Source: Malassezia furfur
Taxonomy: Eukaryota
NCBI GenBank assembly: GCA_052055015.1
Contig: JBQJIT010000005.1
Length of the DNA stretch: 21,485 nucleotides
Strand: one strand, 5' to 3'
Shown: positions 1 to 20,082 of the stretch, piece after piece
Numbering within the stretch: position 1 is the stretch's first letter
Layout: each line of letters opens with the position of its first letter
Program-made: the position numbers and the translations under genes
Notes under the pieces: model-generated
The model's database searches: none
Told to the model about the DNA's origin: nothing
Seen by the model: the letters and a program-made list of their open reading frames with translations, nothing else

Positions 1-933
1 CGACGAGCGCGACGTGTACGATGACGCGTCTTCGTCCGCACGGCTACCAGAAAGACTTGCGCTCTGCAGCTGCGCGTCCAAATCGTCCATCGGCTCGCGC
101 GCACGCGGCGGACGGGGCGCGGCGCGGCGCGTCGTCAGCTGGCGGCGCGGCGCGTATGCGGCCGCCGAGCCGGGCGGTACATCGAGTTCCGACGTCGAGT
201 CGCTCAGCATCGACGCGTTGTCGGCCCCGACGGCGCTCCCGCCGGTGATCTCCTCAAGACGACCCACGAGCGGCATTGCAAACTGCGGGGGCTCGACGTG
301 GCCCGTGAGGATCTCTTGCGCACTAAGTTGCTCGCCGTACGTCTTGCGGTTGGCATCAGGGCGGTCGAGCAGGACAGTGCCCTCGATCGTCACGCCGCCA
401 TACAAGCCGCGGCTCATGCTGTAGCTAAACATCGCCGACATCTTCATCTCGGCATTCAACGCGGCACTCGCCTCGCCTGAGCGCCCAAGCGGCCCGACGG
501 CCAGCGCCAGGTTTCCACCAAGCTGCAGTGAGCCGGACGACATAAAGGTGCGCACGGCCGCGCGCGAGTTGAGCACAATCAGGAAATCAACCATCTCAGC
601 GCCGGCGTTGAAGCCGCCGCCCAACCCGCCGATACCGATCGCCGTAGGCGCCGACCATTCTGCGTGAGGGAGCGTAGGACGTACCGCCATTCGGCAGCTT
701 GGCAAGCACCACGCCTGTACCGGCGCGCGCGCTCATTAGGAACCCGATCCGGTATACGGTAAAGCTGCGTCAGTGCGCGGCGACCCACATCGCGATGCCC
801 TTAGCCTTGCGCATGACGCTCGACGGGATCACCCTGTCGAGCGAGCTCGTGGTGCCCGGCTGGCAGAATTTGTCGAGGATCTGCGTGAGCAGCGTCGACG
901 TGCCTTCTTCGCCCTGCGCACATCCGACTCCAT
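1..933 (-). CDS. YSC84: Ysc84/Lsb3/SH3YL1-family SYLF-domain actin/endocytosis protein, 3' end beyond window; exons 933-904, 880-789, 764-685, 659-<1
   Basis: Spliced translation MESDVRRAKK/ILDKFCQPG...VIPSSVMRKAKGIA/IFTVYRIGFLMSARAGTGVVLAKLPNG/EWSAPTAIGIGGLGGGFNAGAEMVDFLIVLN...LQLGGNLALAVGPLGRSGEA...FSYSMSRGLYGGVTIEG matches SYLF-domain motifs. It needs three tiny introns, so the ORF track misses it. An alternative in-frame ATG exists at 969. The paralog name (YSC84 vs LSB3) cannot be resolved. Confidence 0.88.
660..684 (-). other. 25-nt spliceosomal intron (YSC84-like intron 3)
   Basis: GTACGTCCTACGCTCCCTCACGCAG; removal gives LPNG-EWSAP. Confidence 0.9.
765..788 (-). other. 24-nt spliceosomal intron (YSC84-like intron 2), in-frame TGA
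   Basis: GTGGGTCGCCGCGCACTGACGCAG; removal gives KGIAIFTV. Confidence 0.88.
881..903 (-). other. 23-nt GC-AG intron (YSC84-like intron 1)
   Basis: GCACGTCGACGCTGCTCACGCAG; removal joins MESDVRRAKK to ILDKF, resembling the family N-terminal helix. Confidence 0.75.
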
Positions 934-957
934 CGTCGTCCTCCGGTGAGCGGGGTC

Positions 958-967
958 GCCACGTGGC
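958..967. promoter_or_regulatory. GCCACGTGGC E/G-box, candidate promoter element for the YSC84-like gene
   Basis: CACGTG at 960-965, 26 nt before ATG 933 on the minus strand; same motif recurs at other gene starts. Confidence 0.5.
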
Positions 968-1143
968 ATGATAGGGTCCGGGCGCCAGCGCGTGCGCACC
1001 GCACCACAACAGCACCGCAACTACAGGGCTACAGAGGACGCACCGAGCGACGTACACGCCCTGCATGGTCAGTACCATCGCGTTGGCCGCGAGGGCGCGC
1101 GCGTCGTCGTTGTCGCCGGCGCCTGCGCGTCCGCACGGGCCAT

Positions 1144-1152
1144 GCCACGTGG
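1144..1152. promoter_or_regulatory. GCCACGTGG E/G-box, candidate promoter element for GCN2
   Basis: CACGTG at 1146-1151, 23 nt before ATG 1175. Confidence 0.5.
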
Positions 1153-1174
1153 ATGCCGGCGTCCTCCAGCGACC

Positions 1175-4100
1175 ATGGGGGTGCCGCCGCGGCCTGCCGA
1201 GGAGCTCGCGGAGCTGCGGCGCACAGAGAAAGAAGCCATTGAGTCCATCCTTGGCGATGACTTTGCCGTCGTCCCGTCGACGGCGTGGCATGGCGCTGCG
1301 CAGGTCGAGACGTACGAGGTGGTGCTGCGCCCGGAAGACGAGTCACAAAAGGCGCACATCGCGGTGGTGGTGCGCCTCACGCTCACACGCACCTACCCCA
1401 ACACGGTACCGAGCGTGCAGGTGCGCAGCAATGATCCACGTACGCACGGACTCGCTGCTGAGCAGCTCGCGGCACTCGGCGAGACGCTGCATGCCAAGGC
1501 ACGCACGCTCCTCGGCGCCGAAATGGTGTGGGAGCTGGTGAGCGCCGGGCAAGAGTTTATCAGCGTGTACAATACGGCGCCCGTCCGCGACTCTTCCACA
1601 TCCCGCCTAAGTCTCGAGGAACGCATGAAGCAGCGCGCACGCACCGAGCAGCAGGACGAGGCGCGCCGTGCCCAAGAGCAACACGCCCAGGAAGAAGAGG
1701 CCGAGCGCGCGCGCGAGCAGCAGCTTGCGGATGAAATTGAGAAGGCAACACAGCGGCAAAAGGCCGCCATCCGCGAGGAGCGCAAGAAACTGCGCGACGC
1801 GCCGATGCCCACGCCTGCTGTCCCCGCGCCCACCGAGGCGCGCCGCGTCGACTGGGAGCGTGCGGACGCCGAGGCGTTTGCGCTTGAGGCCGTGCGCATC
1901 GACGACCACACTATGCGGCGGGGCACGCTGCTTGAGACGCACGCGCTCACGCACAGCTTCCTCGCGATGCCGTCCGAGGCAATGCCGGGCACGATGCTGT
2001 ATGCACTCGACGTGACGCCGATCAGTGCGCCATACTACGCCGGTAACAATGGCGCACGCAAGCTCGCCAGCGTCGAGGAGGAGCTTGTGGCTCTACAGCG
2101 GCTCACGGCGCCGACGCTCGTGCCGATCCTCGGGTTCGCGCGCGTGTCACGGCCGACGCCGGATCTGCCCCAGGCGACGGCGCTGTGCATCGTGCGGGGC
2201 TGTGCGAATGCATGGCGCATGAGCCAGCTCCTCGCGCAGTGCCGCACGCTGCCCTGGCCAAGCGTGCGGAGCCATGTGCTGCGCCTGCTCGATGCGCTGC
2301 ACACACTGCACGCTGCCGGCCTCGTGCATCGCCAGGTCGCACCGGAGCATATTGTCCTCGAGCAGGACCGGGTGCGCCTCGGCGGCGCATGTACGCCGCG
2401 GCGCCTGCTCGATCTGCACCGCTCCAATGCCCTCAACGCGCTCCCTACGCGCGAGACGCCCGCGCCGGACGCGTGGCGCTCGCCCGAGGCCATCAGCGAC
2501 CCGATCACCTATGCGCCGCCGCGCGACTTGTGGGACCTGGGCCGGTGTGCGTGCCAGATGCTGTTTGGCACACAGGTTATCTATACGTACGCCTCGCCCG
2601 AGCAGCTCTTTGACTCGATGCACGGCAGCGACATGGACGAGGCGCGCGCATTTTTGCAGCGGCTTATGCATCGCTCGCCCAAGGTGCGGCGTAGCGCCGC
2701 CGAACTCCGTGCACTGCTGGACGAGACGAGCGCGGCGCTGTGGCGCACGGACGATACCGCCGCGTCGGTGCCCGCGCTGCCGACACACTCGCTCGAGGTG
2801 CCGACGCGCGCGGCGCCGACGCACCGTGCGCCCAAAGCACGCGAGCCTATCGGCTCCTTTTGGCAGCTACGCAACTTGCCTGCGGCGCCCGCGCCGCAGC
2901 CCGTGTCGCGCTACTTGAGTGACTTTGAGGAGGTCGAGTTCCTCGGCAAGGGTGCGTTCGGTGTCGTGGTCAAGGCGCGCAACAAGCTCGATGGACGCTT
3001 CTACGCGGTGAAAAAGGTGCGCCTGAGCAGCTCGGCGGCCGAAGAGGAGCGCACCATGCGCGAGATCATGACACTGTCGCGCCTCGACCACCCCCATATT
3101 GTGCGCTACGTCACCTGCTGGATCGAAGAAACCCAGGTCCCGGGCCTCGCGGGGCTCGGCGCCGAGTCGTCGACGGATGCGGCCATGACCACGAGCCAGC
3201 AAATGGACGCCAGTCTGCTCCGCGCCCTCAACCGCTTTACGCCTGCGGGCCTTGGCGGCGCGAGCCATGACGACGACTTTTTATCCACGGATCGCACCGA
3301 TCCTTTGAGCGACGCCGATGCGCTCGTCGAGTTTGGGCCGGTGTCGAGCGACGTGTCCGGCGCACAGGCCGACCCCGCCGAGAGCTCGTTTGCGAGCAGC
3401 GACACGAGCTCGACGCTGTCGTCGAGCGGCGCAAGCTTGGCCAGCCCACCACGCGCGCCAATGTCGTCGTCGCACGACCGCAGCACAGGTGCAACGCGCG
3501 TCCTCTACATCCAGATGGAATACGTCGAGAACCAGACGTTGAGTGATGCGATTGAGCGTGGCCTGTCGATCGACGAGGCGTGGCACATTTTCCGGCAGAT
3601 GCTTGAGGCGCTCGCTCACATTGCGAGCGTCGGCATCATCCACCGCGACCTCAAGCCAAGCAACGTACTGATGTACGCCAACGGGGACATCAAGATTGGC
3701 GACTTTGGCCTCGCGACGACCAACCTGCAGACCATTGAGACGGGTCTCCGCGAGTCGGTCCTGAGCGAGCACGCCATGGGCGCACATGGCGACGACACGG
3801 AGCTTACCTCGGGGCTCGGCACCTTTTCGTACATTGCGCCCGAAGTCCTCTCGAAGCACGGGCTGAGCACACGCTACAACTTCAAGGTCGATATGTTTTC
3901 GCTAGGGATCATGTTCTTCGAGATGATTGCGTCCCAGCGCTACTACAAGACGACGATGGAGCGCTACCAGCTGCTGCGCGACTTGCGGCAGCCTTCCATC
4001 AACTTCCCCGCGGCGTGGGACACGACGCAGTTTGCCGCACAGACGCAAATCATCCGCCAGCTGCTCGACCACGACCCGAGCCGCCGGCCGTCGCCGATGG

Positions 4101-6225
4101 ACATGCTGCACAGCCCGCTGCTCCCGCCCAAGATGCAGGACGAGTACGTGGAGGAGCTCCTGCGCCTCGCGGCGCGGCCTGCGAGTACGCACCGGCACCA
4201 GCTCATCGCCTCGCTCTTCTCCAAGACGGACGCGGACGAGGTGCGTGACTTCACATTCGACACGGGCGCGCAGAGCGACGAGGACGACGTGCTCGTTGGC
4301 GTCGTGTGTCAGTACCTCCGCAGCGTGTTTCAGAAACGCGGCGCGGTGCCGGTGCACCCCCCGCTGCTCGTCCCGCCGAACGATGTGTACGCGGGCGAGA
4401 CGAGCGTCGTCAAGCTGCTCGACCGCACGGGCAACCTCGTGCTGCTTCCGTACGACTTGACGGTGCCGTTTGCGCGCGTGTGTGCGCGCAGCGGCCACCT
4501 GCGCCTGAAACGCTTTGACATCGCCGACGTCTACCGCGAGAACCTGCTCGCCGGGGGTCAACCGCGCGCGGTACTCGCCGCAAGCTACGACATTGTCTCG
4601 CCCGAGGCCGACTTTACCTCGGAAGCCGAGGTGCTCGGCGTGCTCGACGAGCTGCTCGAGATCCCGGGGCTTGCGGGCAACCCGTGGGAGATCGAGGTGG
4701 GGCACGCCTCGATTGCCGACACGCTCCTCGCGCGCTTCCCTGCGCGGCTCCGCGCGTCGATCCTCGGCGTCTTGCCGCACCTCGGCGTACGGGGCAGTGA
4801 ACACCGCGCGCGGCAGCAGCTCACGCAGCTTGGCATGTCGGCCGCGCAGCTCGAAGAGCTCGAGGCCCTCCACTTGCGTGGCGATGTCGCCGACACCACC
4901 GAGCAGCTGCGCGCGCTGCTCACCCCGACGGAGCGCGCGGCGCTCGACGCGGCGCTCGCAGACGTGCACCGCGTCTCGCAGCTCGCACGCCAGTTTGGCG
5001 TGCGTCGCCGCGTGCTGTTTGTGCCGCTGCTCGCGTACGGCTTCCAGCGCTACGAGCAGGGCATCATCCTCACCGTCGTCCAGCACACCAAGCACCGCGA
5101 GGTGCTCGCAGTTGGCGGGCGCTACGACGCGCTCCTCCGCCGTTTTGCGTTCCCCCGCGCCTCGTCGACGGCGAGTCCGGTGCCGGGCGCCGCCGGCGTG
5201 CAAATCGCCGTGGGGAAGATTGTCGCGGCGCTCGCCAAGTACCAGCAGGTAAATGTGCCCAAGCTCATGGGGCGCCCCGAGGAGGAGCGCACGCTCGGGC
5301 CCTGGACGCCGCGCCGGTGCGGTACGTGTGGCACACTCACCCAGAATGTTATCTCGCCGCTAGTGCGCCCGGCCTGCTTGATCTGCGCATCGAGTTGTGT
5401 ACGCTGCTGTGGGCCAACGGCGTGAGCGCCGACATCCAGTACGAGAGCAGCGCCGGCGAATCGCTCGAGACGACCACGTCCATGTGCCGCGCTGAAGGTA
5501 TCCTCTTTCTTATCCTCGTGCGCGCCCACAACCCGGCGCTGAAGGTACGCGAGGTCATTCCGCGCACCGAGCATGAGGTGCTGCGTGAGGATCTGCTGCC
5601 CTTCCTGCATGACCGCATTGCACGCCAGCGCCGCATCGACCTGCACACTGCCGGCGGCACGCAGGCGCGGCCCAACGTCCCTGATGTCCAGATCAAGGCG
5701 CCATCGCTGGTCAAGCTTGCGCCGTCCACGGCCGCACCGCTCCCTCTGCGTACGGTGCCGCCTTCGGACGTGCATGTGTCGCTCCCGCCGCGGCCCGACC
5801 GCGCGCGCCGCGACCGCCACGGCGAGCGTAAGCTCAAGCCCGCAGCACACCAGGCGCTTGCCGAAAAGGCCGCCGGCGAAACGGCGCGCCTGGCCGATGC
5901 ACTGTCGACCAACAAGCTGCCTGTCTTTGCCGTGGACCTCGCACCCAGCCTGCTCACACGCTTTGCGGCGGTGGCTGTCGCGCCCGACGACGTGTTCCGC
6001 GCGCAGTTCGCCGACACCACGCACGAGGAGCGCGAGTATCTCCGCACGCTTCGCACGCAGATTTTGCATGCGCTGCGTACCGACGATGCGAGCACACCGA
6101 CGCCGCCGCCCAGCAGTGCACTGCCCGGTGCTGCGCGGGCCGAGGCGCCGACAGGCACGCACACAGGCACGCACCGCGCGCTGCTCTACTCGATCCGCGA
6201 GGGGCGCCTCGTGTTGACGGAATAG
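1175..6225 (+). CDS. GCN2: eIF2-alpha kinase GCN2 (about 1675 aa); exons 1175-5321, 5345-6225
   Basis: N-terminal RWD domain (EKEAIESIL...TYPNTVP), charged region, pseudokinase (VHRQVAPEHI), kinase with insert (SRYLSDFEEVEFLGKGAFGVVVK, HRDLKPSN, KIGDFGLA), HisRS-like domain (LPYDLTVPFAR, LAVGGRYD). The C-terminal part is joined through a 23-nt intron (PRRC-ECYLAAS...LWANGVSAD). Start chosen on GACCATGG context and RWD position. Confidence 0.95.
5322..5344 (+). other. 23-nt spliceosomal intron (GCN2)
   Basis: GTACGTGTGGCACACTCACCCAG; links the frame of ORF 968..5425 to the frame of ORF 5317..6225. Confidence 0.92.
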
Positions 6226-6236
6226 CCGCTAGGTAC

Positions 6237-7189
6237 CTACTCGACCCGGTCATGCTCGACATCCGCAAAATGGCTGTCGTGCGCGTTGTCCGCCAGCGCG
6301 ATCGGCCCGTCGTGCTCCGTCAGCACCGAGTCGTCGCCCGTATACAGGAACGCATCGTAGAGGCCCACGCCCAGTAGGCCACCGACGACCGGCGCAAGCA
6401 CCGGGCCAAATAGCCAGTACGCGCCGTCGTGCGTCCAGAGCTCTTTGCCATAGCCGAGCAGCATCAGCGCCAGCCTAGGACCCAGATCGCGCGCGGGGTT
6501 CAGCGCGTAGCCCGTGTTGTAGCCCAGCGCGGAGCCGATGGCCAGCACCGCGAAAAAGAGGCCGATCGGCATCGTGCCCCGGCGCAGCGCCCAGTTTCCC
6601 TGGTCGCCCATGGCAGCTACAAGGAAGAGCAGCGTCGCGGTGCCGACCAACTCGGTCATATACGCCGTCGAGCGCGCAATCAGTGCGCTTGGGAATGTGA
6701 CAAACAGCCCGGCGGTCGCACGGGGGCCGACGACCGTGCGCGCCGCGCCGCCCTCAAACACGGCTATGCTGTCGTGGTACAGCGCGTACACGACCAGTGC
6801 CGCTACAAAGCACCCCAGCACTTGCGCAACAATGTAGCTCAGCACCTTGCGCTCTGGGAAACGGCGCAGCACCCGCATCGCGATCGTCACTGCAGGGTTG
6901 AGGTGCGCGCCGGAAATCCCGCCAGCTGCCCAGCACCCAAGGGCAATGCCGGCCGCCCACGCGATCCGACACTGCAGGTAGTTGCCTGGGTCAGCACACC
7001 TTTACCTACCAAACGCGCCGGCCATGCCATGCTCCGCATAGTGCAGGCGCACCTCGCACTCGACACCCGTGCCAAACAGGATGACCATGAATGCACCCCA
7101 AAATTCGCTGGTTGAGTATATGCTACGTACGCAAACTCTTCTTTGTACGCTTGGCGCACACGGTGCCAGCGGTGCAACGTCGCGGCCAT
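6237..7189 (-). CDS. Aquaglyceroporin (MIP family, GlpF/AQP3-type), about 301 aa; exons 7189-7131, 7107-7010, 6985-6237
   Basis: Spliced protein has EEFAEFWGAFMVILFG, GISGAHLNPAVT (NPA1) and GYALNPARDLGPR (NPA2 followed by RD, the glyceroporin signature); spliced length 906 nt is a multiple of 3. Confidence 0.92.
6986..7009 (-). other. 24-nt intron (aquaglyceroporin intron 2), in-frame TAA
   Basis: GTAGGTAAAGGTGTGCTGACCCAG. Confidence 0.88.
7108..7130 (-). other. 23-nt intron (aquaglyceroporin intron 1)
   Basis: GTACGTAGCATATACTCAACCAG; removal gives EEFA-EFWG. Confidence 0.88.
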
Positions 7190-7219
7190 GGTGTCTGAAG
7201 CGCAGCCAGGCCCGTGCGC

Positions 7220-7228
7220 GGCCACGTG
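7220..7228. promoter_or_regulatory. GGCCACGTG E/G-box between the RMT2 stop and the aquaglyceroporin start
   Basis: CACGTG at 7223-7228 abuts the RMT2 stop codon and lies 33 nt before aquaglyceroporin ATG 7189. Confidence 0.5.
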
Positions 7229-8442
7229 CTACCATAGCTGCAGGTGGGCTACCGGGAGATAATACTGCGCCAGGGTCCAGTACTGCCGCTTGACCCCGTT
7301 CCAGTCCTCGGCCTCGACGCGGGGGGAGAGCGTTTGCCATTCGGTCACCAGCCCAATCTCGCGCAGGTCCAGCTCGCTCACGCGCGTATACACCTCGTAC
7401 AAGAACCGGTTCGTCGCCGCGAGGCCGTGGAAGAAGGAGAAACGCGCCTCGGGGCCGGACAGTACGTTGGGCAGGCACTCGAAAAAGGCGCGCAGGTCGT
7501 TGTAATCTTGCGAGTAGGTATCAAAATAGATCGCGTCAAACACGCCAAGCTTCATGGCGATTTCGCCGTCCGGGTCGTCTTGCGGTTGCAAAAAATCCTC
7601 CCAGGTCCCTTCGAAGATTTCCACGCCGGGCCGCTTGTCCCAGCCTTGCTCGCGCAAAAATCGCAGTGCATCGGGGTGCGGCTCAATAATGACGTGCCGC
7701 CCAGGGCGGTACTTCTGGATCGCCTCGTCAATGATGCCAAGACCAAAGCCGACGTTGAGCACGGCAAAGCCTTCGTCCTGTCCGGCGCACAGCGCATGCG
7801 CCGACGCGTGCATGATCTCGTTCTCCCACTCGGCCATCACCATGTTGCGATCCTTGTCCAGACACCGCCACTGCCCGCGCTCGTCTTTCTCAAACGTGAG
7901 CGGGGTCGCAAGGAACGCGCGGTTGCTCGCACTCGCCTCGTTCTGCGTGCCGGGCACCAACGTGAGCGACGCGCCGTTTGTCTGCTCAGCAAGCTCCGCA
8001 TGGTCCATGGCCTGGGCCTCGTGCTCGGTGTTTGCGTCAACTTTGCGCTCGAGCAGGTTCGCCAAAAACGACTGCCGCACACCCTCTGCGGTGAGACACG
8101 CCTCTACGCACCTTCGAGAAGCAGCATGTAGCACTCGTTTGCATTACGTGACCACGCCAAGTCACCTGCCGTATATCCGAGCCTGTCCACGGCATTCCAG
8201 AGTCCACCGTAGCGCAGCAGTACGCGAATGGTCTCGGCGCTGCCGGCGTCGGCCGCATAGTGCAGGGCGTCCCAACCCAGCGCTTCGTCCGCGTACCAGG
8301 CGTCTGCGGAGCCGTCCCATGCACCGCTATCCTCGTCCTTATGTTGCAGCAGCCTCTTGCACTGCGCAGCGTCGCCCGCTGCCGCCGCGCGCAGCAGCTG
8401 CTCGTTGCGCTCCGTGCGGGCCGCCGGCCATGCGTCGTCCAT
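7229..8442 (-). CDS. RMT2: Arginine N-delta methyltransferase Rmt2 (ankyrin repeat + GAMT-like SAM domain), about 395 aa; exons 8442-8112, 8085-7229
   Basis: Ankyrin-like N-terminus (GWDALHYAA...LLRYGGLWNAVDRLGYTAGD), then VMAEWENEIM, VLNVGFGLGIID, HVIIEPHPD, FDAIYFDTY, FSFFHGL, all Rmt2 motifs. Confidence 0.93.
8086..8111 (-). other. 26-nt intron (RMT2)
   Basis: GTGCGTAGAGGCGTGTCTCACCGCAG; removal gives YMLLLE-EGVRQ. Confidence 0.9.
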
Positions 8443-8488
8443 CGTCGCAAATTTTGGCCACGTGCGTCTTGCGTCCGGCGGCGATCGC
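8443..8488. promoter_or_regulatory. 46-bp divergent (bidirectional) intergenic region containing AAATTTTGGCCACGTG
   Basis: Lies between RMT2 ATG (8442, -) and nucleoporin ATG (8489, +); CACGTG at 8459-8464. Confidence 0.6.
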
Positions 8489-10045: not shown

Positions 10046-10047
10046 TG

Positions 10048-13000: not shown

Positions 13001-14250
13001 CGCAGGCTCGCCGTGTACGGGCGCGCGGGATAGGCGAATGTGACGTGGTCCAGCGTAAAGCTCGGCTCGTACGTCGGCAGCTGCGTCGGATTGGGCGCGC
13101 CCGCCGGTACGCCGAGGATCGCGCCGTCGGTCGACCGCACGTCGACGTGCGGCTCGCGCTCGATCACGGCGCGCATCTTGCGCAGCGCCGCACCGCTCTC
13201 AATGAGGCTGAGCAGGTGGGGAATGACCATCGCCATGGAGAACATCGAGCTGAGGTAGTTGTAGAAGCACGAAATGACCCCGTCCATCTGCTCACGCCCC
13301 TTGGCGATCTGCACCGAGCCCCACCAGAAGCCGAGCGAGTAGAGCGCGTTAATCACAAAGTACATCGATGCCACGTCTCCGCCCTTGACCGCCGCGCGCC
13401 GCGTGACAAAGCGCGCCAGCGGCGCAATGTACAGTGTATGCATCCGCGTGACAAGGATGTGCGTCAGTTCAAACGAGTGCACCACGCGCACAGACGAGAG
13501 CACCTGCTCGACAAACGTCGACAGACGGCTGTCGATGTCGAGCGCGGACGAGGTCACCATGTCGCCCAGCGCACCAAGCGTCGTCGTGACAAGCACTGCA
13601 AACACCAGCACGGTGAGCAGCACACCCGCAACGGTCGGCGCACGCGAAAAGGCCATCACCATGCTCGTGATCAACGTCGCGACCGCGTTCGCAAAGAAGC
13701 CCAACTTCTCGCCAAACGCCGCGCGGATCTGCGTCACGTCGCGGTTCGCGCGCGAAGCAATTTCGCCAGGGCCGTGCACATCAAAGAAGCCCGGATCCTG
13801 CACAATGGCCGCGGCAAAGTATTCCTCACGCAGTCGGTGGCACAGCTCGTGCGTCGCGAGCGGCATTAGCGTCACAAAGCCCCAGCTCGTGAGCAGCACC
13901 AGCACACCGATCACCACATTGATCCACGCCAGCAAATTGCTGTGGCGCTGCGCGTACGCGGGATCCGTCCACTGGTACTCCTTGACCGTATGCGACCAGT
14001 AGCCGTACAGCAAGTCGATCGCCGACAGACCGCCACCAGCCACGATCGCGCACGCCAGGCCCAGCACGTACAGCACCGTCGGGTGCCGGACGAACGCCAT
14101 CGGCGCGCGCACCGGCGAGGGCACGGGCGGCGCAAACGAAAAGAGGTACAGAAAACCTCGTAGGCGCGAGCGGTGTTGGTGTAGGATCGCCGCTCGGTAC
14201 GGCGCCTCGTACGCCTGCATGGCGTTGTCCACTCCGTCCCCCGCGGTCAT
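10048..14250 (-). CDS. Full-length ABCB (MDR/P-glycoprotein-like) ABC transporter, TMD-NBD-TMD-NBD, up to 1400 aa, apparently intronless
   Basis: Two NBDs: GPSGSGKST/LSGGQRQRIAIARAL/LCLDEATSALD and GTSGSGKSS/LSGGQRQRVCIARAL/LLLDEATSALD, each preceded by a TMD. Start could be 14250 or 14220. Substrate unknown. Confidence 0.93.
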   Translation of the reverse strand: MTAGDGVDNAMQAYEAPYRAAILHQHRSRLRGFLYLFSFAPPVPSPVRAPMAFVRHPTVLYVLGLACAIVAGGGLSAIDLLYGYWSHTVKEYQWTDPAYAQRHSNLLAWINVVIGVLVLLTSWGFVTLMPLATHELCHRLREEYFAAAIVQDPGFFDVHGPGEIASRANRDVTQIRAAFGEKLGFFANAVATLITSMVMAFSRAPTVAGVLLTVLVFAVLVTTTLGALGDMVTSSALDIDSRLSTFVEQVLSSVRVVHSFELTHILVTRMHTLYIAPLARFVTRRAAVKGGDVASMYFVINALYSLGFWWGSVQIAKGREQMDGVISCFYNYLSSMFSMAMVIPHLLSLIESGAALRKMRAVIEREPHVDVRSTDGAILGVPAGAPNPTQLPTYEPSFTLDHVTFAYPARPYTASLRDVSIVFPPGKVTALVGPSGSGKSTITALLGREYDPETSNVPVRGDEKFGAGDPEGDTPGDAPGEKAAATREKSPERAASRVSQDGDVEEARERVRGGGRVLFGGVDVRELNLRWLRSQIAVVRQNPQLFSGTIAENVAMGLTAVQPDASVADEAVRAKVQDALVKAEAWTFVKKLPQGMDTHLGGGRNVHLSGGQRQRIAIARALVREPQILCLDEATSALDTSTEERIKRMLQREQTARGMTTIIVAHRLSTVQHADQIVTLTHGAVAEVGTHRELMRHTGGVYHRMVMHNRIASGLPLDDEAEPDVPDYATGVETTTQASSSAWGPPRTGAPARAAPNAPEGGKHWQPPRLADVSMRGAGVTGASWGASDRRDEARAADDADSADEKNEGAGAGAVTKRAPRRGLWHVSQGQHGVFVVGIAFAVALAASFPITGWISGYAIDALGIQNDPGRLRDRSNWWGMWFIVVAAVALMVGFFASFFLELASERMMNAIKVKSLHALLRQEVAFFDRKENASGALSSAVFSHAQSIGTATGVVAVQLIMAAGNLLGSVIMSISMSWELALTCVPGLLSLLVASFFNVQLAERYEKVVQSPIDGTAAYIAEIVDAIPTVASLGREQRALRHMERESTVREPFRWVLATSSACFAYSQFALYGSTGLMLYWGTRLVVTERIDASSMFAVFEGVFIGVFAAVRLATFLPDVARARHAIKVVEGWWARTPQISQDADAGVAWPPSGPRDLVLSHVELRYPQRPDVPALRHLNLTIHENQTVAFCGTSGSGKSSILSLLQRFYDPCRGTITYGGLDLRAIPLPTWRAEMAYVSQDPVLYEGTLRWNLSLGAVDPERVTDAEIEAACREACVWDFAMALPEGLDTMIGLKGSSLSGGQRQRVCIARALLRRPRILLLDEATSALDAESEVLVQQALDNACKGCTTITIAHRLSTIRRADLICVVEDGKIVEMGSHDELLHKHGRYFELVEAQL

Positions 14251-14261
14251 CGCATTCGTGG

Positions 14262-14278
14262 CGCGTGGCCAAAAATTT
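14262..14278 (-). promoter_or_regulatory. AAATTTTTGGCCACGCG, variant of the upstream motif, before the ABC transporter
   Basis: Nearly identical to AAATTTTGGCCACGTG at 8449-8464. Confidence 0.45.
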
Positions 14279-14334
14279 GCCCTAATTTCCTCTTTCTACG
14301 CGCTGTGGAGGCCCCGGCTCCGGCCCCGGCATTT

Positions 14335-16926
14335 CTACGCCCCAAATAAGAAATTCATCTCGCTCGCCGACAGGCGCGAGGCTGCGTCAGACCCGGTCAC
14401 GTACCGCGCGACAGCTGCGTGCTGCCGTCCAGCGCCGCCTTGGCGAGCGCACGCTTCTTCTCTTGTAGCTGCAGAATCCGCTCCTCGACCGTGTCGGTGA
14501 TCGACAGCTTGTAAATGTACACGTCTTTCGCTTGGCCGAGCCTGCGTCAGCGTCCCACGTACCGGTGCGCACGATCGAAGGCCTGCTCCTCGATCTGCGG
14601 ATTCCACCACAGGTCGCACAGGATCACCCGGTTGCAGCACGTCAGATTTAGACCCGTGCTTCCGGCCTTGAACGAGATCAGAATCACGCGCGTCTCGGGC
14701 CGCGTGCGGATCGCCTGGAGCGCCGACTCGCGCGCAGTGCGCGACATGGTTCCATCGTCTGGGTCAGGGGCTCACGTACATCGCACGAAATCCACGCCGT
14801 GCTTCCGCAACACGGGGCCCAGCAGGTCCAGAAACGAGGTAAACTGGCTAAACACGATCGTCTTGTCGTCGCGCGCTTCGCCGCGGATCGTATCGAGGAG
14901 CGCGACGACCTTGTCGACCTTGGATGAGCTCCGTGAACCCCAGTCGATGCCACGCTCTGCCTCGTCCTTGGCCTGCGCACGACACCCCGCACACAGGACA
15001 TGCCCGCCTTCGGCGGGGTGCGACGCCGGCAGCGACACTTGGCACCGCTCACAGTGCTGCGAACGCACCGACAACCCGGACAGCAGCTCGGCCAGCTCGT
15101 CGTCCGCACTCATGCCAGAGTCGGCGGCCGCGACGGCAGGCGCATCAGGTGCAGAAGGCGCGCTTGGCGACTGGCCCGTAATCAATGCAGGGTGATTACA
15201 CGCTGCGTCAGCGCACCACCTACCTTGCCGTAGCCTCAGGAGCATCACCAGCATACCCATCATGTCGTGCTTGCCCTCCGCCTCAACCGAAAGGCTGTCC
15301 TTAATGCACAGTTCAATCTTCCGGTAGAAGGCACGCTCCTCGTCACTCGCAAAGTCGAGCATGACCACATCGACGTTGCGCTTCGGCAGCTGCAGCAACT
15401 TCTTGCCATTGTATTCGGCGTCCTTGGTGCGCCGCAGCATGATGGTGCGTAGAATGACACACAGCCGCTTCATTCCGTTTTCGCTGCGGGCGCGCATGCT
15501 GCGTGAGGCGGGCCACGTACGTGCTCTTCAGCGGGTCGTCAATCTTTTCGCGGAAGTGCGACAGGTCGTCAAACGGCGCCGCACGCAAAAAGTGCATCAG
15601 ACTAAACAGCTCCAGAACATTGTTCTGCAGCGGCGTTCCGGTCAGGCACCAGCGCGACGCCGCATTCAGCGACAGTTCGTAGCATGCCTGGCTGCTCTTG
15701 GCACGGTAATTTTTGATGTTGTGCGCCTCGTCTGCGTCAGTAAGCGACCTACCCAGCACCACCCGGAGCCATTTTACCTGGAACAGCGGCGCGCGCGCCA
15801 CTTTAGCGCGTGGCTTGCGCACTGTGCGGCGTGGTAGCGGCGTGTCCGAGTCGGACGACGCCGAAGCAGAGCTCGACGCGTCCGAATTCAGCGTAAGAGG
15901 ACGCGCTTTCGATCCTAGACTCGGCGCGTCTTCGTCTAAGTCGGCAAGGTACTGCGCATGCTCGTTGCTGGCCGTCGCGTACGTCGTGATCACCACGTCG
16001 GCGCGCCGCAGTACATCCGCCGACTTGGCGCGGTGGGGGCCATGGTGCACATACACCTGCAGTTTGTGCCCTGTCTTTTCGTTCGCCTCGCGCTGCCATT
16101 GCTCAACGACCGCGAGCGGCGCAATAATGAGCGTCGTCTTGGTACCGGAAGCATACACTGCCTTGCGCCGCTGCGCCAGCATGTCCCCCACCTCGTCCAC
16201 AAACACGGCGCCATCGGGATCGTCTTGGCCACTGGTCGGCGGCGCTTTGGCTTTGGCCTTGGGCTTGCCGAGGCCCTCCTTGGCCAGGTTTGCCGCCAGA
16301 TCATCGGATGGCTCGCTCGATTGCATGCTCTCCAATGTGCGATGCAGCAAGATGAGTGCGAGCATTTGCACGGTCTGTGTGAGCCTGCGACGTACTTTGC
16401 CCAATCCCATATCGTCCGCGAGGATGCCACCTTTGATGTCACCGCACTCGCGCTGCTGCATCCACTCGATGCCTTGCACTTGATGCGGCAGCAGGCGGCA
16501 CAGCAGACCAGGGACATTTGCCTTGTTCATGTCGACCTGCTCGACGACCGTCACGAGACTCGAAAGCATCGCCTGCAGCTGCTTCTCGCGGTCTTTGGCC
16601 GAGAGATTGCTCCGCTCGAGCGGAGTACCGGGTGCTGGCGGCGTCGCTAGTGCGCGATCTGGTGTCCACCGCTTTGGTGTGCGCGTCTGCGGCGTGCCGC
16701 GCGTCGGTGTGCTGGGACCCCGGCCCAGCATCCAGGGGCTCGGCGGCTCGGGCGTCGACGGCATCATGCGCACGCGCGGCTCGGTGCGCCACCCTGTGCG
16801 CCCACGCACGCTCGGCGAGCCTGTGCCCTGTGGTGTGCGTGGGCTCCCACGGTCCTGTTGGGTCCCGGGCGTGGGCGAAGCGAGGCCCAGCTGCTGCGCC
16901 AGCAGGCGCTGCCGCATGGCCTCCAT
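14335..16926 (-). CDS. SNF2-family ATPase, Rad5/Rad16-like group (Ris1/Uls1/TTF2-like), about 813 aa; exons 16926-16396, 16374-15753, 15731-15521, 15498-15224, 15202-14780, 14758-14563, 14541-14405, 14381-14335
   Basis: After removing 7 tiny introns: [115 protein letters not shown]; spliced length 2442 nt is a multiple of 3. Confidence 0.9.
14382..14404 (-). other. 23-nt intron (SNF2 intron 7)
   Basis: GTACGTGACCGGGTCTGACGCAG; gives C-terminus [15 protein letters not shown]. Confidence 0.85.
14542..14562 (-). other. 21-nt intron (SNF2 intron 6), in-frame TGA
   Basis: GTACGTGGGACGCTGACGCAG; restores DRAHR-LGQ. Confidence 0.93.
14759..14779 (-). other. 21-nt intron (SNF2 intron 5), in-frame TGA
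   Basis: GTACGTGAGCCCCTGACCCAG; restores FVR-YDG. Confidence 0.93.
15203..15223 (-). other. 21-nt stop-free in-frame intron (SNF2 intron 4)
   Basis: GTAGGTGGTGCGCTGACGCAG; restores RLRQ-ACNHP. Confidence 0.9.
15499..15520 (-). other. 22-nt intron (SNF2 intron 3)
   Basis: GTACGTGGCCCGCCTCACGCAG; joins the frames of ORFs 15343..16956 and 14772..15497. Confidence 0.9.
15732..15752 (-). other. 21-nt stop-free in-frame intron inside Walker B (SNF2 intron 2)
   Basis: GTAGGTCGCTTACTGACGCAG; restores VVL-DEAH. Confidence 0.92.
16375..16395 (-). other. 21-nt stop-free in-frame intron inside Walker A (SNF2 intron 1)
   Basis: GTACGTCGCAGGCTCACACAG; restores GLGK-T. Confidence 0.92.
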
Positions 16927-16959
16927 CGTGTTGATATGTGGAGGAACGTACCACACTGG

Positions 16960-18294
16960 CTACGCGGTCCGTGCGCGTTTGCTGGGGGAGTCTATGGTGT
17001 CGTGAGCGCGGCCTTCACGCTTAGGGGGTTCCGCGAGCATCGCACCATCGGCGTCCTCGAGCTTGATCGAGGGAGGCGCTGGCCCATCGATGTGCGCCTC
17101 TTCCTTGGGCTTTGTTTCGTCGTCGTGGGCCCACACCTCTCCGTCCGGCGCCTCGACCGGCTCGGTCTTGGGCTCCGCTTTCACGTCGGCCTCTGGCTCG
17201 TACGCCAACAGCGAGGGCAGGTCTGCGTAAAAGAGGAACTGCATTAGTTGTGCACGTACCGAATGTGCCCAGCCCGCCCGATCGCCCCAGATGGCGCGCA
17301 GGCGGTCGGCGACCTCTTCGTACCGCTTGGTACGGATGCCGTACCACCGCTCAGCAAAGTGGAAGACGTGCCGGTCGACGGGGATGCTGCTCGCTTGGTC
17401 CAGCGACATGAGCAGGATACAGTCGGCCACTTTGGGGCCGATACCTGCGAGAGGCAGCAGCCGTTCACGGGCGTCGTAGTACGACAGGTGGCGTAGCTCC
17501 ATTAGATCGGCATACACGGCCTCGTCCACTTTTTCGTCGGGTGCATCAGGAGGCAAGGAGTCTCGCGCTTTTTCGCACAGCATCGACGCGGTCTGTGCGA
17601 GGTACTTGGCCCGGTACCCGAATCCGAGCGCACGTAGCCGACCCTCGACATCGGGCTGCGCGAGCCGCGTGGGCGGCGGAAAAGGATGGTACGCAAGCGA
17701 GACATGCTTTTCTGGTGCATCCGCGAGCTCGTTCATGTCGAGGGTATGGCACAGGCGGGCGCCTGGTGGGTAGTCTTCGACATGCACGCACGGCGAAAAG
17801 TGCTCACACAGCTTGTGCACCATCTGACTGATGCGGGGAATGTTGTTGTTGGAGCTGCAAATGAACCTGTGTGAGCAGGATACGTACGCGCACATGCACT
17901 CCCACGGGTCCTGCCGCAGGATGTTGCCCCCCGCGAACCGCTGGGCGTGCTTCGCGAAGACGGGGTCCTTGGCGCTCCACTCCTCGAACCACGTCGCCGC
18001 GGGTGTGTCGAGGTTCAGGTAGTCCCGTAGCCAGTGCGCGGTGTCAGTGCGTGCTGCGTTCGGCGCATACACGGTGCGGTGCAGCAGCGCATGCGACGCA
18101 CGGTCGTGCGTGACGAACACGACGCGGTCACGAAGGCACAACGACCACTCGAGCCGCCGCGGCTCTTTGCCGCGCGCAGGCACAAGCACCTTGCGCCACC
18201 GGAACGCCTGCCCGCACTGGTGCGCAATGGTCAGCGGCAGTACCACGGGACACTGCGGCGACAGCGCCAGCACCTCGTACGCGGCTGGTGGCAT
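16960..18294 (-). CDS. OGG1: 8-oxoguanine DNA glycosylase/AP lyase, about 430 aa; exons 18294-17888, 17866-17260, 17238-16960
   Basis: CGQAFRW, ILRQDPWECMCA-FICSSNNNIPRI, LRALGFGYRAKY, HhH-GPD region GIGPKVADC...IPVDRHV with catalytic Lys and Asp, AGWAHS-FLFYADL. Confidence 0.95.
   Translation of the reverse strand: MPPAAYEVLALSPQCPVVLPLTIAHQCGQAFRWRKVLVPARGKEPRRLEWSLCLRDRVVFVTHDRASHALLHRTVYAPNAARTDTAHWLRDYLNLDTPAATWFEEWSAKDPVFAKHAQRFAGGNILRQDPWECMCAYVSCSHRFICSSNNNIPRISQMVHKLCEHFSPCVHVEDYPPGARLCHTLDMNELADAPEKHVSLAYHPFPPPTRLAQPDVEGRLRALGFGYRAKYLAQTASMLCEKARDSLPPDAPDEKVDEAVYADLMELRHLSYYDARERLLPLAGIGPKVADCILLMSLDQASSIPVDRHVFHFAERWYGIRTKRYEEVADRLRAIWGDRAGWAHSVRAQLMQFLFYADLPSLLAYEPEADVKAEPKTEPVEAPDGEVWAHDDETKPKEEAHIDGPAPPSIKLEDADGAMLAEPPKREGRAHDTIDSPSKRARTA
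17239..17259 (-). other. 21-nt stop-free in-frame intron (OGG1 intron 2)
   Basis: GTACGTGCACAACTAATGCAG; restores AGWAHS-FLF. Confidence 0.9.
17867..17887 (-). other. 21-nt stop-free in-frame intron (OGG1 intron 1)
   Basis: GTACGTATCCTGCTCACACAG; restores ECMCA-FICSSNNN. Confidence 0.9.
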
Positions 18295-18329
18295 GGGGCA
18301 TCGGGCGATCGGGCGTCGTCGCGACGACC

Positions 18330-20072
18330 ATGGCGGTTCGGCGGACGACGCCGGCGCGGGCCGGGCGTGCGGAACGCGCGCCGCGTATGGACGCGCTTGC
18401 GCCGCGGAAACCAACGGGGCGCTACGTGTACGAATCGTCGGAAGATCAGAGCGATACGGACCCTGTGAATTGGCGCGACGTGCCGCGGCCCAAGTGGTGG
18501 GCAGACCTTGCGAGCGACGACGACGACGACGACGACGCCGATGAAGGCGAGCACACCGCCGACCTGTCCGCGGTGCGTCTTGCCAATGAGCTTGATCCAT
18601 GGGAGGCATGGGAGGCCGAGAGCCGGCGGCGCGCCTGGGTACGTCGCGTCCTAACCCAGCGGCCCATCTTGCACCAGGGCCCCGTACGTGTGCGGCACAC
18701 GTCGACGCCGCGTGCCGCGGACCGCAGCATTCAGGAGGTGTCGGACTTGCTGTCGCGCTTCCAACTGCAGCAAAAAGAAACCGAGCGCATCGAGCGCGAG
18801 TCGTTCGACCAGCGCAACGCCTCGCTTTGGGAGGGCATTGAGCAAGCGATCCGCGACGCCGAAAAGCGCGCGGTACACGAAGCTGAGCAGCTCGCGCACG
18901 CACGCAAACGCCAAGAGCAGGCCGAGGCTGAGGCGAAGCGCGCGCGCGAGGCCGAGCTCGCGCGCATCGAGCGCGAGAAGCGCGCGGCCGAAGAGGAGAA
19001 AGCGCGGGCCGCTGCCAAGGAAAAGGAGCTCGCCGAGCTCGCCCAGAAGGAGGGCGTGTACAATACAATGCGTGGTGGCGAGCGCATCTGGCCGATCGCT
19101 GCCAAGGAGTATGCGCACTGGCAGGCCGAAATGCGCACCATCAAAGAGGAGATTCTGCCCGCCGTCGCCGCGAATCCAGCATGGCGGAAGCAGTGCTTTG
19201 CCGCGAAACGTGCCATCACGCCCAAGATTGGACAGCTGACCAACTCGCGTGCAGAAATTGCACGCATCACGAATGCGATCGCCGCCGTGCTGCAGGAGGC
19301 CAAGGACGCGTCCGATACGCAGGCGCAGCGCTTCCTCTACTACTGGACGCTCAACCATCTCGCCAAGGGCCTCATCCGGCAGGCCGAGCAAGAGGTCGCC
19401 GCGCGGCAAGAGACGGCGTATCCCCTCGCGCGCACTGCGCTCGGGCTTATGCTCCGCGGCCACGGCGAGCTGGGCCATGTGCTCATGGCGCGCCTCGTGA
19501 AAAAGTGCCCCTACGTCTTGGGCTACGTCCCCGAGCGCCCGGCCGACGCCGACGAGCGCACGTACCGCAAAATGCTCGGTTTCCGCCCGGACACGGAGGA
19601 GTCGACGCACATGTACGTGTCGCGCATGGCGGGCATCGCCGCGCTCTACTTTGCGTGCCTGCAAACGGCGCTGCCGTCCGTCGCGCAGTGCAGCGGTCTG
19701 CCGCCGTCGGTGCCGCTGTCCGATGCGGCGCAGGCGGTGCCCGAGGTGCTGCGCCCTGCGCGGCTGTGGACGTGGCAGGTGCGGTGCACCACGCCGCCGG
19801 TCGCGCGGCAGTCGCTCGTCCCGTCGCTGTGGTGCACGTTCTTGGAGGTGGCCGGGATCGCTGCCCAGGAACGCTACGGCCGACAGGCACACAAGCTCTG
19901 GACGCTGCTCCTGGAAGAGGGCGTGCGCCACAAGCAGCTCGGACCAGCCGAGGCATCGGGCGACCAGGAGGCGCTGCACGCCGCGCGCGTGCGCCTCCAG
20001 CTTGTGCTCGAGTCGTGGCAAAAGACGCACTCGCTCGCCGAGCACGCGTCGGCGGGGCGGGAGATGGAATGA
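18330..20072 (+). CDS. GLE1: mRNA export factor Gle1, about 573 aa; exons 18330-18638, 18660-20072
   Basis: Acidic N-terminus, E/K/R/A-rich coiled coil, then GLE1 domain motifs ITPKIGQLTNS, LNHLAKGLIRQAEQEV...AYPLA, LMARLVKKCPY, YVSRMAGIAALYFA. Start 18330 chosen for GACCATGG context; 18387 is an alternative. Confidence 0.9.
   Translation: MAVRRTTPARAGRAERAPRMDALAPRKPTGRYVYESSEDQSDTDPVNWRDVPRPKWWADLASDDDDDDDADEGEHTADLSAVRLANELDPWEAWEAESRRRAWVRRVLTQRPILHQGPVRVRHTSTPRAADRSIQEVSDLLSRFQLQQKETERIERESFDQRNASLWEGIEQAIRDAEKRAVHEAEQLAHARKRQEQAEAEAKRAREAELARIEREKRAAEEEKARAAAKEKELAELAQKEGVYNTMRGGERIWPIAAKEYAHWQAEMRTIKEEILPAVAANPAWRKQCFAAKRAITPKIGQLTNSRAEIARITNAIAAVLQEAKDASDTQAQRFLYYWTLNHLAKGLIRQAEQEVAARQETAYPLARTALGLMLRGHGELGHVLMARLVKKCPYVLGYVPERPADADERTYRKMLGFRPDTEESTHMYVSRMAGIAALYFACLQTALPSVAQCSGLPPSVPLSDAAQAVPEVLRPARLWTWQVRCTTPPVARQSLVPSLWCTFLEVAGIAAQERYGRQAHKLWTLLLEEGVRHKQLGPAEASGDQEALHAARVRLQLVLESWQKTHSLAEHASAGREME
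18639..18659 (+). other. 21-nt stop-free in-frame intron (GLE1), hidden in an open ORF
   Basis: GTACGTCGCGTCCTAACCCAG matches the donor, branch and acceptor consensus and the modal length of the other introns; no protein-motif check available. Confidence 0.8.
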
Positions 20073-20082
20073 CTGTACATAG

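Follow-up and report, generated by a model that had tools for sequence, protein, structure and literature searches.

How a spliceosome recognizes and folds an intron that barely exceeds its own signals is an open question, and ultra-short introns are now studied in ciliates, nucleomorphs, microsporidia and, recently, myxozoans. The question is raised in a fungus by a stretch of 21,485 nt from Malassezia furfur (contig JBQJIT010000005.1, hereafter the window), which is 61-71% GC and densely filled with fungal genes. An original prediction, made from the letters of the window, had described 17 introns of 21-26 nt in seven genes and proposed that their lengths end at an apparently hard floor of 21 nt. 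Our analysis indicates that these introns are very probably real, and it is highly likely that all 17 are ordinary U2-type spliceosomal introns of a GC-rich Malassezia, compressed almost to the bare splicing signals. The introns share one signal pattern, are strand specific and have effects on the reading frame, and at every junction their removal restores the homologous protein exactly.

Identification of the introns

Every G[TC]R[CG]GT hexamer was listed on both strands together with the downstream AGs, and gene models were then assembled. The hexamer listing and the gene models gave a set identical to the predicted one, with the same lengths (eight introns of 21 nt, one of 22, four of 23, two of 24 and one each of 25 and 26 nt) and the same donors (GTACGT in 11, GTAGGT in three, and GTGCGT, GTGGGT and GCACGT in one each). 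The median length was 22 nt and the mean 22.4 nt. All 17 introns were on the sense strand of the seven genes. They are listed below, where ORF-preserving means that the open reading frame (ORF) stays open if the intron is kept.

660..684, minus strand, Ysc84-like intron 3: 25 nt, GTACGT...CTCAC-G-CAG, phase 1, frame-shifting
765..788, minus strand, Ysc84-like intron 2: 24 nt, GTGGGT...CTGAC-G-CAG, phase 2, in-frame stop if kept
881..903, minus strand, Ysc84-like intron 1: 23 nt, GC-AG, GCACGT...CTCAC-G-CAG, phase 0, frame-shifting
5322..5344, plus strand, GCN2 intron: 23 nt, GTACGT...CTCAC-C-CAG, phase 1
6986..7009, minus strand, aquaporin intron 2: 24 nt, GTAGGT...CTGAC-C-CAG, phase 1, premature stop if kept
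7108..7130, minus strand, aquaporin intron 1: 23 nt, GTACGT...CTCAA-C-CAG, phase 2, frame-shifting
8086..8111, minus strand, RMT2-like intron: 26 nt, GTGCGT...CTCAC-CG-CAG, phase 1, frame-shifting
14382..14404, minus strand, SNF2 intron 7: 23 nt, phase 1, frame-shifting; removal yields the conserved C-terminus
14542..14562, minus strand, SNF2 intron 6: 21 nt, phase 2, premature stop if kept
14759..14779, minus strand, SNF2 intron 5: 21 nt, phase 1, premature stop if kept
15203..15223, minus strand, SNF2 intron 4: 21 nt, GTAGGT, phase 1, ORF-preserving
15499..15520, minus strand, SNF2 intron 3: 22 nt, phase 2, frame-shifting
15732..15752, minus strand, SNF2 intron 2: 21 nt, GTAGGT, phase 1, ORF-preserving
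16375..16395, minus strand, SNF2 intron 1: 21 nt, phase 0, ORF-preserving; splits Walker A GLGK/T
17239..17259, minus strand, OGG1 intron 2: 21 nt, branch box CTAAT, phase 0, ORF-preserving
17867..17887, minus strand, OGG1 intron 1: 21 nt, phase 2, ORF-preserving
18639..18659, plus strand, GLE1 intron: 21 nt, branch box CTAAC, phase 0, ORF-preserving

Signal layout and intron class

The introns are built from a GTACGT-like donor, a spacer of 6-10 nt, a CTNAC box, a single base, or two in one intron, and a terminal CAG. The position counts of the 17 introns were G17, T16, A15, C13/G4, G17 and T17 at the 5' end, and C16, T16, C7/G7/A3, A16, C15, N, C17, A17 and G17 at the 3' end. In all but one of the 17 introns the presumed branch A lay at -6, leaving a tail of 5 nt, and in none was it nearer to the donor than intron position 16. 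A pyrimidine tract was absent from all 17, and their GC content was 62%. The spacer between donor and branch box measured 6 nt in eight introns, 7 nt in one, 8 nt in four, 9 nt in two and 10 nt in two. Intron length thus varies only via the spacer, and the 21-nt minimum is composed of 6 + 6 + 5 + 1 + 3 nt.

The composite of these signals (donor hexamer, YTNAY, 0-4 nt and YAG within at most 26 nt) occurred 18 times in the window, always on the sense strand of a gene. The matches comprised 16 of the 17 introns and two nested alternative donors, and the intron with the CTCAA box was missed. When the window was simulated 200 times with a first-order Markov model, the composite motif occurred 1.9 +/- 1.3 times, and at most 5 times. 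The 3' part by itself, CTNAY-N1-2-CAG, was found at 22 sites, both strands counted. Intron ends account for 16 of them; the six others, two on the sense and four on the antisense strand, lack a donor in the 30 nt upstream.

The termini were GT-AG in 16 introns and GC-AG in one, and every intron ended in CAG, as in U2-type introns. Read from the consensus alone, the donor is of the extended GTRNGT type, which is of the U1/U6-pairing kind. The branch box was CTNAC or CTNAT in 16 introns and CTCAA in one, as in fungal branch sites, for which the consensus is CTRAY. The base 5' of the branch A was C in seven of the 17 introns (CTCAC), which departs from the R of CTRAY; a C at this position would be left unpaired by the usual U2 branch-binding sequence. 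If the introns are processed as their signals suggest, CTNAC would be the branch site and the introns would be excised efficiently as lariats. The spliceosome of this lineage may then need a spacer of at least 6 nt to bridge the donor/U6 and branch/U2 helices, and such a lineage-specific lower bound would have been reached via deletion bias and the compaction seen across the genome.

Other intron classes were rejected. U12-type (minor) introns have a rigid ATATCC or GTATCC donor and a TCCTTAAC branch box, and no such donor was present in any of the 17 introns. The IRE1-type introns of HAC1 and XBP1 (26 nt in XBP1) are defined by twin stem-loops, lack GT-AG and branch signals, and occur in one substrate. 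The window has 17 sites in seven unrelated genes with GT/GC-AG termini and branch boxes, so this type was rejected as well; stem-loops were not searched for. A spread of introner-like elements was also dropped, as the eight 21-nt introns had spacers without likeness, by eye, beyond the signals.

Reading frame and protein homology at the junctions

All nine complete coding sequences (CDSs) run from ATG to stop without an internal stop, and their spliced lengths are multiples of three, as had been predicted; the Ysc84-like gene is partial. If retained, 11 of the 17 introns would shift the frame or introduce a premature stop. The remaining six, all of 21 nt, are in frame and free of stops: three in SNF2 (16375-16395, 15732-15752 and 15203-15223), both in OGG1 (17867-17887 and 17239-17259) and the one in GLE1 (18639-18659). 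The reading frame does not need these six introns, and therefore every junction was tested against homologues. The expectation that splicing restores conserved protein motifs held throughout, with gap-free alignment at all 17 junctions (SNF2 7/7, OGG1 2/2, Ysc84-like 3/3, GCN2 1/1, aquaporin 2/2, RMT2-like 1/1 and GLE1 1/1).

Ten of the 17 intron lengths are multiples of three (binomial p = 0.027). Selection for or against stop-free introns of 3n length is not claimed here, as the counts fit the consensus expectation per phase. The window introns contrast in this respect with those of Paramecium, in which a deficit of stop-free 3n introns has been reported.

Part of the comparison used six syntenic Malassezia-like metagenome contigs (L001-L006, 48.5-49.7% GC), apparently from three species. 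The gene order GLE1-OGG1-SNF2-ABC-FG-nucleoporin-RMT2-MIP-GCN2 is common to them. For 11 junctions, one or more of the related contigs had an uninterrupted coding sequence, and at these places the relatives act like a cDNA surrogate.

In the SNF2-family helicase gene, the junction of intron 1 was gap-free in 12 of 12 homologues. Removal of intron 2 restored VVL/DEAH (Walker B) in 12 of 12, and removal of intron 4 restored LRLRQ/ACNHP in 11 of 12. The entry without ACNHP, P0003 of M. yamatoensis, looks like a mis-called intron. The intron 3 junction PLKS/T was gap-free, and removal of intron 5 restored VR/YDG. Introns 1 to 5 were each absent in three of three related loci. Removal of intron 6 restored DRAHR/LGQ (helicase motif VI), and an orthologous intron was found in L001 and L005 and was absent in L004. 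At the site of intron 7 the relatives carry a pair of introns with an 11-nt micro-exon between them, and the second intron (28, 22 and 29 nt) is likely, although tentatively, the orthologue.

For OGG1, the gap in the human OGG1 alignment at the site of intron 1 was exactly seven residues. This junction (ECMC/AFICSSNNN) was uninterrupted and gap-free in L001, and L004 and L006 have an intron of 33 nt. The human alignment ended at the donor of intron 2 (17259), where L005 was uninterrupted across GWAH/.LFYADL, L004 and L006 have an intron of 42 nt, and L001 has one of 23 or 26 nt. The L001 intron (9776-9801) has tandem acceptors, TAG and then CAG, 3 nt apart, and its 26-nt form fits the uninterrupted L005 protein better than the 23-nt form. 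The GLE1 junction RRAW/RP was uninterrupted in L004, L005 and L006, which are without the seven-residue insert.

The three Ysc84-like junctions were all supported by vertebrate SH3YL1 and fungal homologues. The intron 1 junction RRAKK/ILDKF was gap-free in six of 11 SH3YL1/Ysc84 homologues, namely those spanning the region, and those of intron 2 (KGIAI/FTV) and intron 3 (LPNG/EWSAP) were gap-free in the homologues. An internal GT donor in intron 1 would yield an intron of 19 nt and a broken frame. The GCN2 intron links ORF 950-5422 to the frame of ORF 4801-6222, and its junction TPRRC/ECYLAAS was gap-free against 12 GCN2 homologues. The PDB GCN2 alignments ended 2-3 residues beyond the donor, and the downstream exon alone had no PDB match. 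At aquaporin intron 1, L004 and L005 carry an orthologous intron at the same position; at intron 2 (GAF/GNY), L005 was uninterrupted and gap-free and L004 has an intron. The RMT2-like junction LLLE/EGVRQSF was uninterrupted and gap-free in L004 and L005.

Intron length and presence in related contigs

The window introns were usually shorter than their orthologues in three related contigs, which measured 22-59 nt. The lengths in the relatives and in the window were 25 and 24 vs 21 nt for SNF2 intron 6, 28 and 29 vs 23 nt for SNF2 intron 7, 33 vs 21 nt for OGG1 intron 1, 42 and 23-26 vs 21 nt for OGG1 intron 2, 27 (L004) and 25 (L005) vs 23 nt for aquaporin intron 1, and 59 (L004) vs 24 nt for aquaporin intron 2. 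Since the orthologous introns are mostly longer, the lineage of the window is at the short extreme of its relatives.

Which introns are present differs within the group. Some introns of the window were absent from the related contigs: SNF2 introns 1-5 (three loci), the RMT2-like intron (two) and the GLE1 intron (two). Closer relatives keep SNF2 intron 1 (P0002, 89% identical) or intron 2 (P0002, P0005 and P0008). The 11-nt micro-exon in the SNF2 C-terminus is flanked by introns of 26 and 28 nt in L001 (12398-12462), 26 and 22 nt in L005 (12400-12458) and 29 and 29 nt in L004 (12431-12499). Removal of both flanking introns restored the conserved ...FLF.G SNF2 C-terminus.

A possible lower bound of intron length

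The proposed hard floor stood in part: the lengths in the window do cluster at 21 nt and nothing shorter was found, but 17 introns in 21 kb cannot set a hard limit. The nine lengths other than 21 nt were all longer, for which a symmetric expectation gives (1/2)^9 = 0.002. A motif scan of the window with spacers of 0-5 nt gave no candidate below 21 nt. In a homology-gain test, in-frame GT/GC...AG segments were removed and the alignment to relatives was scored, with a threshold of 8 points. Of 407 segments of 12, 15 and 18 nt in seven genes, two reached the threshold by a small margin (8-9 points), and splice signals were missing from both. When run at 21 nt, this test picked up five of the six ORF-preserving introns, each raising the score by 11-16 points, along with a single marginal false positive. 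The introns recovered in this blind test were 16375-16395, 15732-15752, 15203-15223, 17239-17259 and 18639-18659. A lower bound near 21 nt in the lineage of the window is plausible.

The steric limit of a streamlined spliceosome, which the original prediction had suggested for the 21-nt minimum, cannot be a universal one, since the ciliate Stentor coeruleus splices introns of 15-16 nt in which the branch A occupies position 10 and is followed by a 5-nt tail (Nuadthaisong et al., 2022, PMC9505925). Any limit on length, if there is one, would lie in the donor-to-branch distance of this lineage. The Stentor introns resemble those of the window in being a near-uniform minimal form with the same 5-nt tail from branch A to 3' splice site. 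They differ in the loop, which is 10-11 nt in Stentor and at least 16 nt in the window introns, and in being AU-rich (about 76%) without a strong branch consensus, whereas the window introns are 62% GC with a strong CTNAC.

It is possible, and we propose it tentatively, that this GC-rich Malassezia lineage has the shortest intron population among fungi (mode 21 nt, median about 22 nt, below microsporidia), with a sharp genome-wide left edge given by at least 15 nt before the branch A and the fixed 5-nt tail. If such an edge at 21 nt is true, it would be a natural read-out of the smallest substrate for an otherwise conventional fungal spliceosome, and it would add a lineage that current lists of ultra-short introns lack. 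Direct tests of the minimal donor-to-branch distance would be possible in a basidiomycete yeast that can be cultured and transformed, whose commonest intron is 21 nt long and in which the spacer is the one element that varies. A genome-wide cliff at 21 nt, if shown, would raise the significance of the finding.

Comparison with known short introns

The original prediction had cautioned that shortness itself may not be new, and very short introns have indeed been published for the genus. M. sympodialis has 5,350 introns with a mean of 30 bp, 99% of them supported by RNA-seq (Zhu et al., 2017, PMC5389616), and the introns of M. restricta have a mean of 37.2 and a median of 30 (PMC9241646). Minimum intron lengths of 10-20 nt are already used by Malassezia annotators (PMC5389616, PMC6473144), with values of 20 and 15 in the annotation of M. 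restricta (PMC6473144), and a review speaks of 'very short introns' in Malassezia (PMC7426719). An older MAKER annotation of M. globosa gave introns of 76-79 nt (PMC4634964). Nuclear intron length is not mentioned in the available text of PMC3560662, PMC8476143 and PMC7385547. A full-text literature search found, in the text accessible to it, no description of an intron floor, mode or signal layout in Malassezia. Fig. S8 of Zhu et al. (PMC5389616) presents the intron-size distribution as an image, from which values were not read, and may bear on the floor.

The introns of M. sympodialis and M. restricta resemble those of the window in genus, in the compact genome style and in being GT/GC-AG introns of a few tens of bases. 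The published means or medians of 30 contrast with the median of 22 and mean of 22.4 found here, and the window lengths of 21-26 nt lie no higher than the lower part of the range published for Malassezia. Very short introns are thus known at the genus level; what appears to be new is a more extreme species and the rigid layout of 6 + (at least 6) + 5 + 1 + 3 nt.

Outside the genus, microsporidia and ciliates are listed as exceptions to a lower intron limit of about 30 bp (PMC13644364). In the text available, the same 2026 survey of lineages with introns below 30 bp names ciliates, Microsporidia and Dicyemida and omits Malassezia, and it describes microsporidian splicing as inefficient (PMC13644364). 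Paramecium introns are about 25 nt long. Encephalitozoon and Paramecium share the length class of 20-30 nt and constrained ends with the window introns and differ in lineage. In 2025 a 23-nt intron of Trichomonas vaginalis was described as 'one of the shortest known' (PMC12316389). The type B introns of this species, with a minimum of 23 nt, likewise combine the branch box and 3' splice site in a composite with fixed spacing. However, T. vaginalis is a protist with a few dozen T-rich introns genome-wide, whereas the window, from a fungus, has 17 in 21 kb.

Alternative explanations

It is extremely improbable that the 17 segments are not introns at all but chance motif matches or short coding insertions specific to the lineage. 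Eleven of them are needed for the frame, all 17 junctions are gap-free against homologues, and the motif is about 10-fold more frequent than in simulation and strictly on the sense strand. Some of the six in-frame, stop-free introns might be facultatively retained, giving isoforms with seven extra residues. The ORF does stay open in these six, and the ten lengths that are multiples of three (p = 0.027) show no sign of counter-selection. However, the stop-free count is what we would expect from the consensus per phase, the relatives are without the seven residues, and the inserts would lie inside Walker A (GLGK/T), directly before DEAH and inside C/AFICSSNNN of OGG1, so that the products would presumably be inactive. 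We therefore regard facultative retention as improbable. A more serious alternative, although we still consider it unlikely, is that the introns are real and the 21-nt floor is an impression from a small sample, with some shorter introns or a broader distribution, or both, genome-wide. The small number of introns, the published genus mean and median of 30 and a 22-nt intron in a relative, whose branch box abuts the CAG so that tails can shrink, agree with this. Against it, eight of the 17 introns are exactly at the minimum and none is below it, neither the motif scan nor the homology test gave a candidate under 21 nt, and the spacer was never below 6 nt in eight orthologous introns of the related contigs, parsed by eye.

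Ordinary U2-type introns compressed almost to their signals remain the preferred explanation, and several points weigh against it or its extension to a lower bound. The six ORF-preserving introns are supported by homology and motif alone. We infer the orthology of the related contigs from synteny and 45-72% identity, and in a single case the order of lengths is reversed, the L005 orthologue of SNF2 intron 7 being 22 nt and the window intron 23 nt. The sample is 17 introns from 21 kb, seven of them in one gene, and the 15-nt introns of Stentor indicate that spliceosomes can go lower (PMC9505925). Finally, the published averages are higher, and the window may be atypical of its genome, or the species may differ.

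Gene content and gene packing

The host is assigned to Malassezia by the best named matches, which are in this genus, and by the gene order common to Malassezia-like contigs. Pfam matches in the window were Ysc84, GCN2 domains, MIP, FG-nucleoporin, ABC transporter, SNF2-rel_dom, OGG_N/HhH-GPD and GLE1. Rfam and tRNA scans of the window gave no matches. The genes are as follows.

1..969, minus strand: Ysc84/SH3YL1-like CDS, 5' part, Pfam Ysc84, 3 introns, exits the left window end
968..6225, plus strand: GCN2 CDS, Pfam RWD, Pkinase and HisRS-like, PDB GCN2 match, 1 intron
6237..7189, minus strand: aquaporin/MIP CDS, Pfam MIP, 301 aa, 2 introns
7229..8442, minus strand: RMT2-like CDS (ankyrin and methyltransferase), without Pfam match, 395 aa, 1 intron
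Plus strand: FG-nucleoporin gene, Pfam
Minus strand: ABC transporter gene, Pfam
14335..16926, minus strand: SNF2-family helicase CDS, Pfam SNF2-rel_dom, 813 aa, 7 introns
16960..18294, minus strand: OGG1 CDS, Pfam OGG_N and HhH-GPD, PDB OGG1 (E = 8e-43), 430 aa, 2 introns
18330..20072, plus strand: GLE1 CDS, Pfam GLE1, 573 aa, 1 intron
20083-21405, minus strand: Pro/Ser/Ala-rich ORF, 440 aa, with ATG and TAG, candidate gene

The GCN2 start is ATG 968 or ATG 1175; the latter, directly 5' of the RWD domain, is more likely. The gene at 7229-8442 is 62-72% identical to syntenic ORFs of L004 and L005, and we take it to belong to the RMT2 family. The best named homologues of the SNF2 helicase were from M. 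yamatoensis (59%), M. psittaci (57%) and M. pachydermatis (47%). ORF 20083-21405 had no Pfam match and no intron motif.

Several predicted SNF2 homologues read through introns (P0001, P0002, P0008, P0006 and P0010), and P0003 appears to be mis-spliced. P0001 and P0002 have a seven-residue insert after GLGK, and P0006 and P0010 read through their own intron at the site of SNF2 intron 6, giving YV... after DRAHR. Because public predictions read through short introns, database proteins of the genus carry intron-derived residues. Given the six ORF-preserving introns and the misread predictions, gene models of Malassezia should be built with a minimum intron length of about 20 nt and checked against homologues.

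The genes are tightly packed. Divergent start codons are 46 nt apart between the RMT2-like and FG-nucleoporin genes (8442-8489) and 35 nt apart between OGG1 and GLE1 (18294-18330). Convergent stops are 11 nt apart in GCN2/aquaporin (6223-6239), 2 nt in FG-nucleoporin/ABC (10043-10050) and 10 nt in GLE1/ORF 20083-21405 (20070-20085). In the tandem pairs (16926-16962, 14250-14337 and 7189-7231) the distances from the upstream stop to the next ATG are 33, 84 and 39 nt. With intergenic gaps this small, untranslated regions and promoters must overlap adjacent genes. Among the nine complete CDSs the stop codon was TAG in eight and TGA in one, and TAA was not used.

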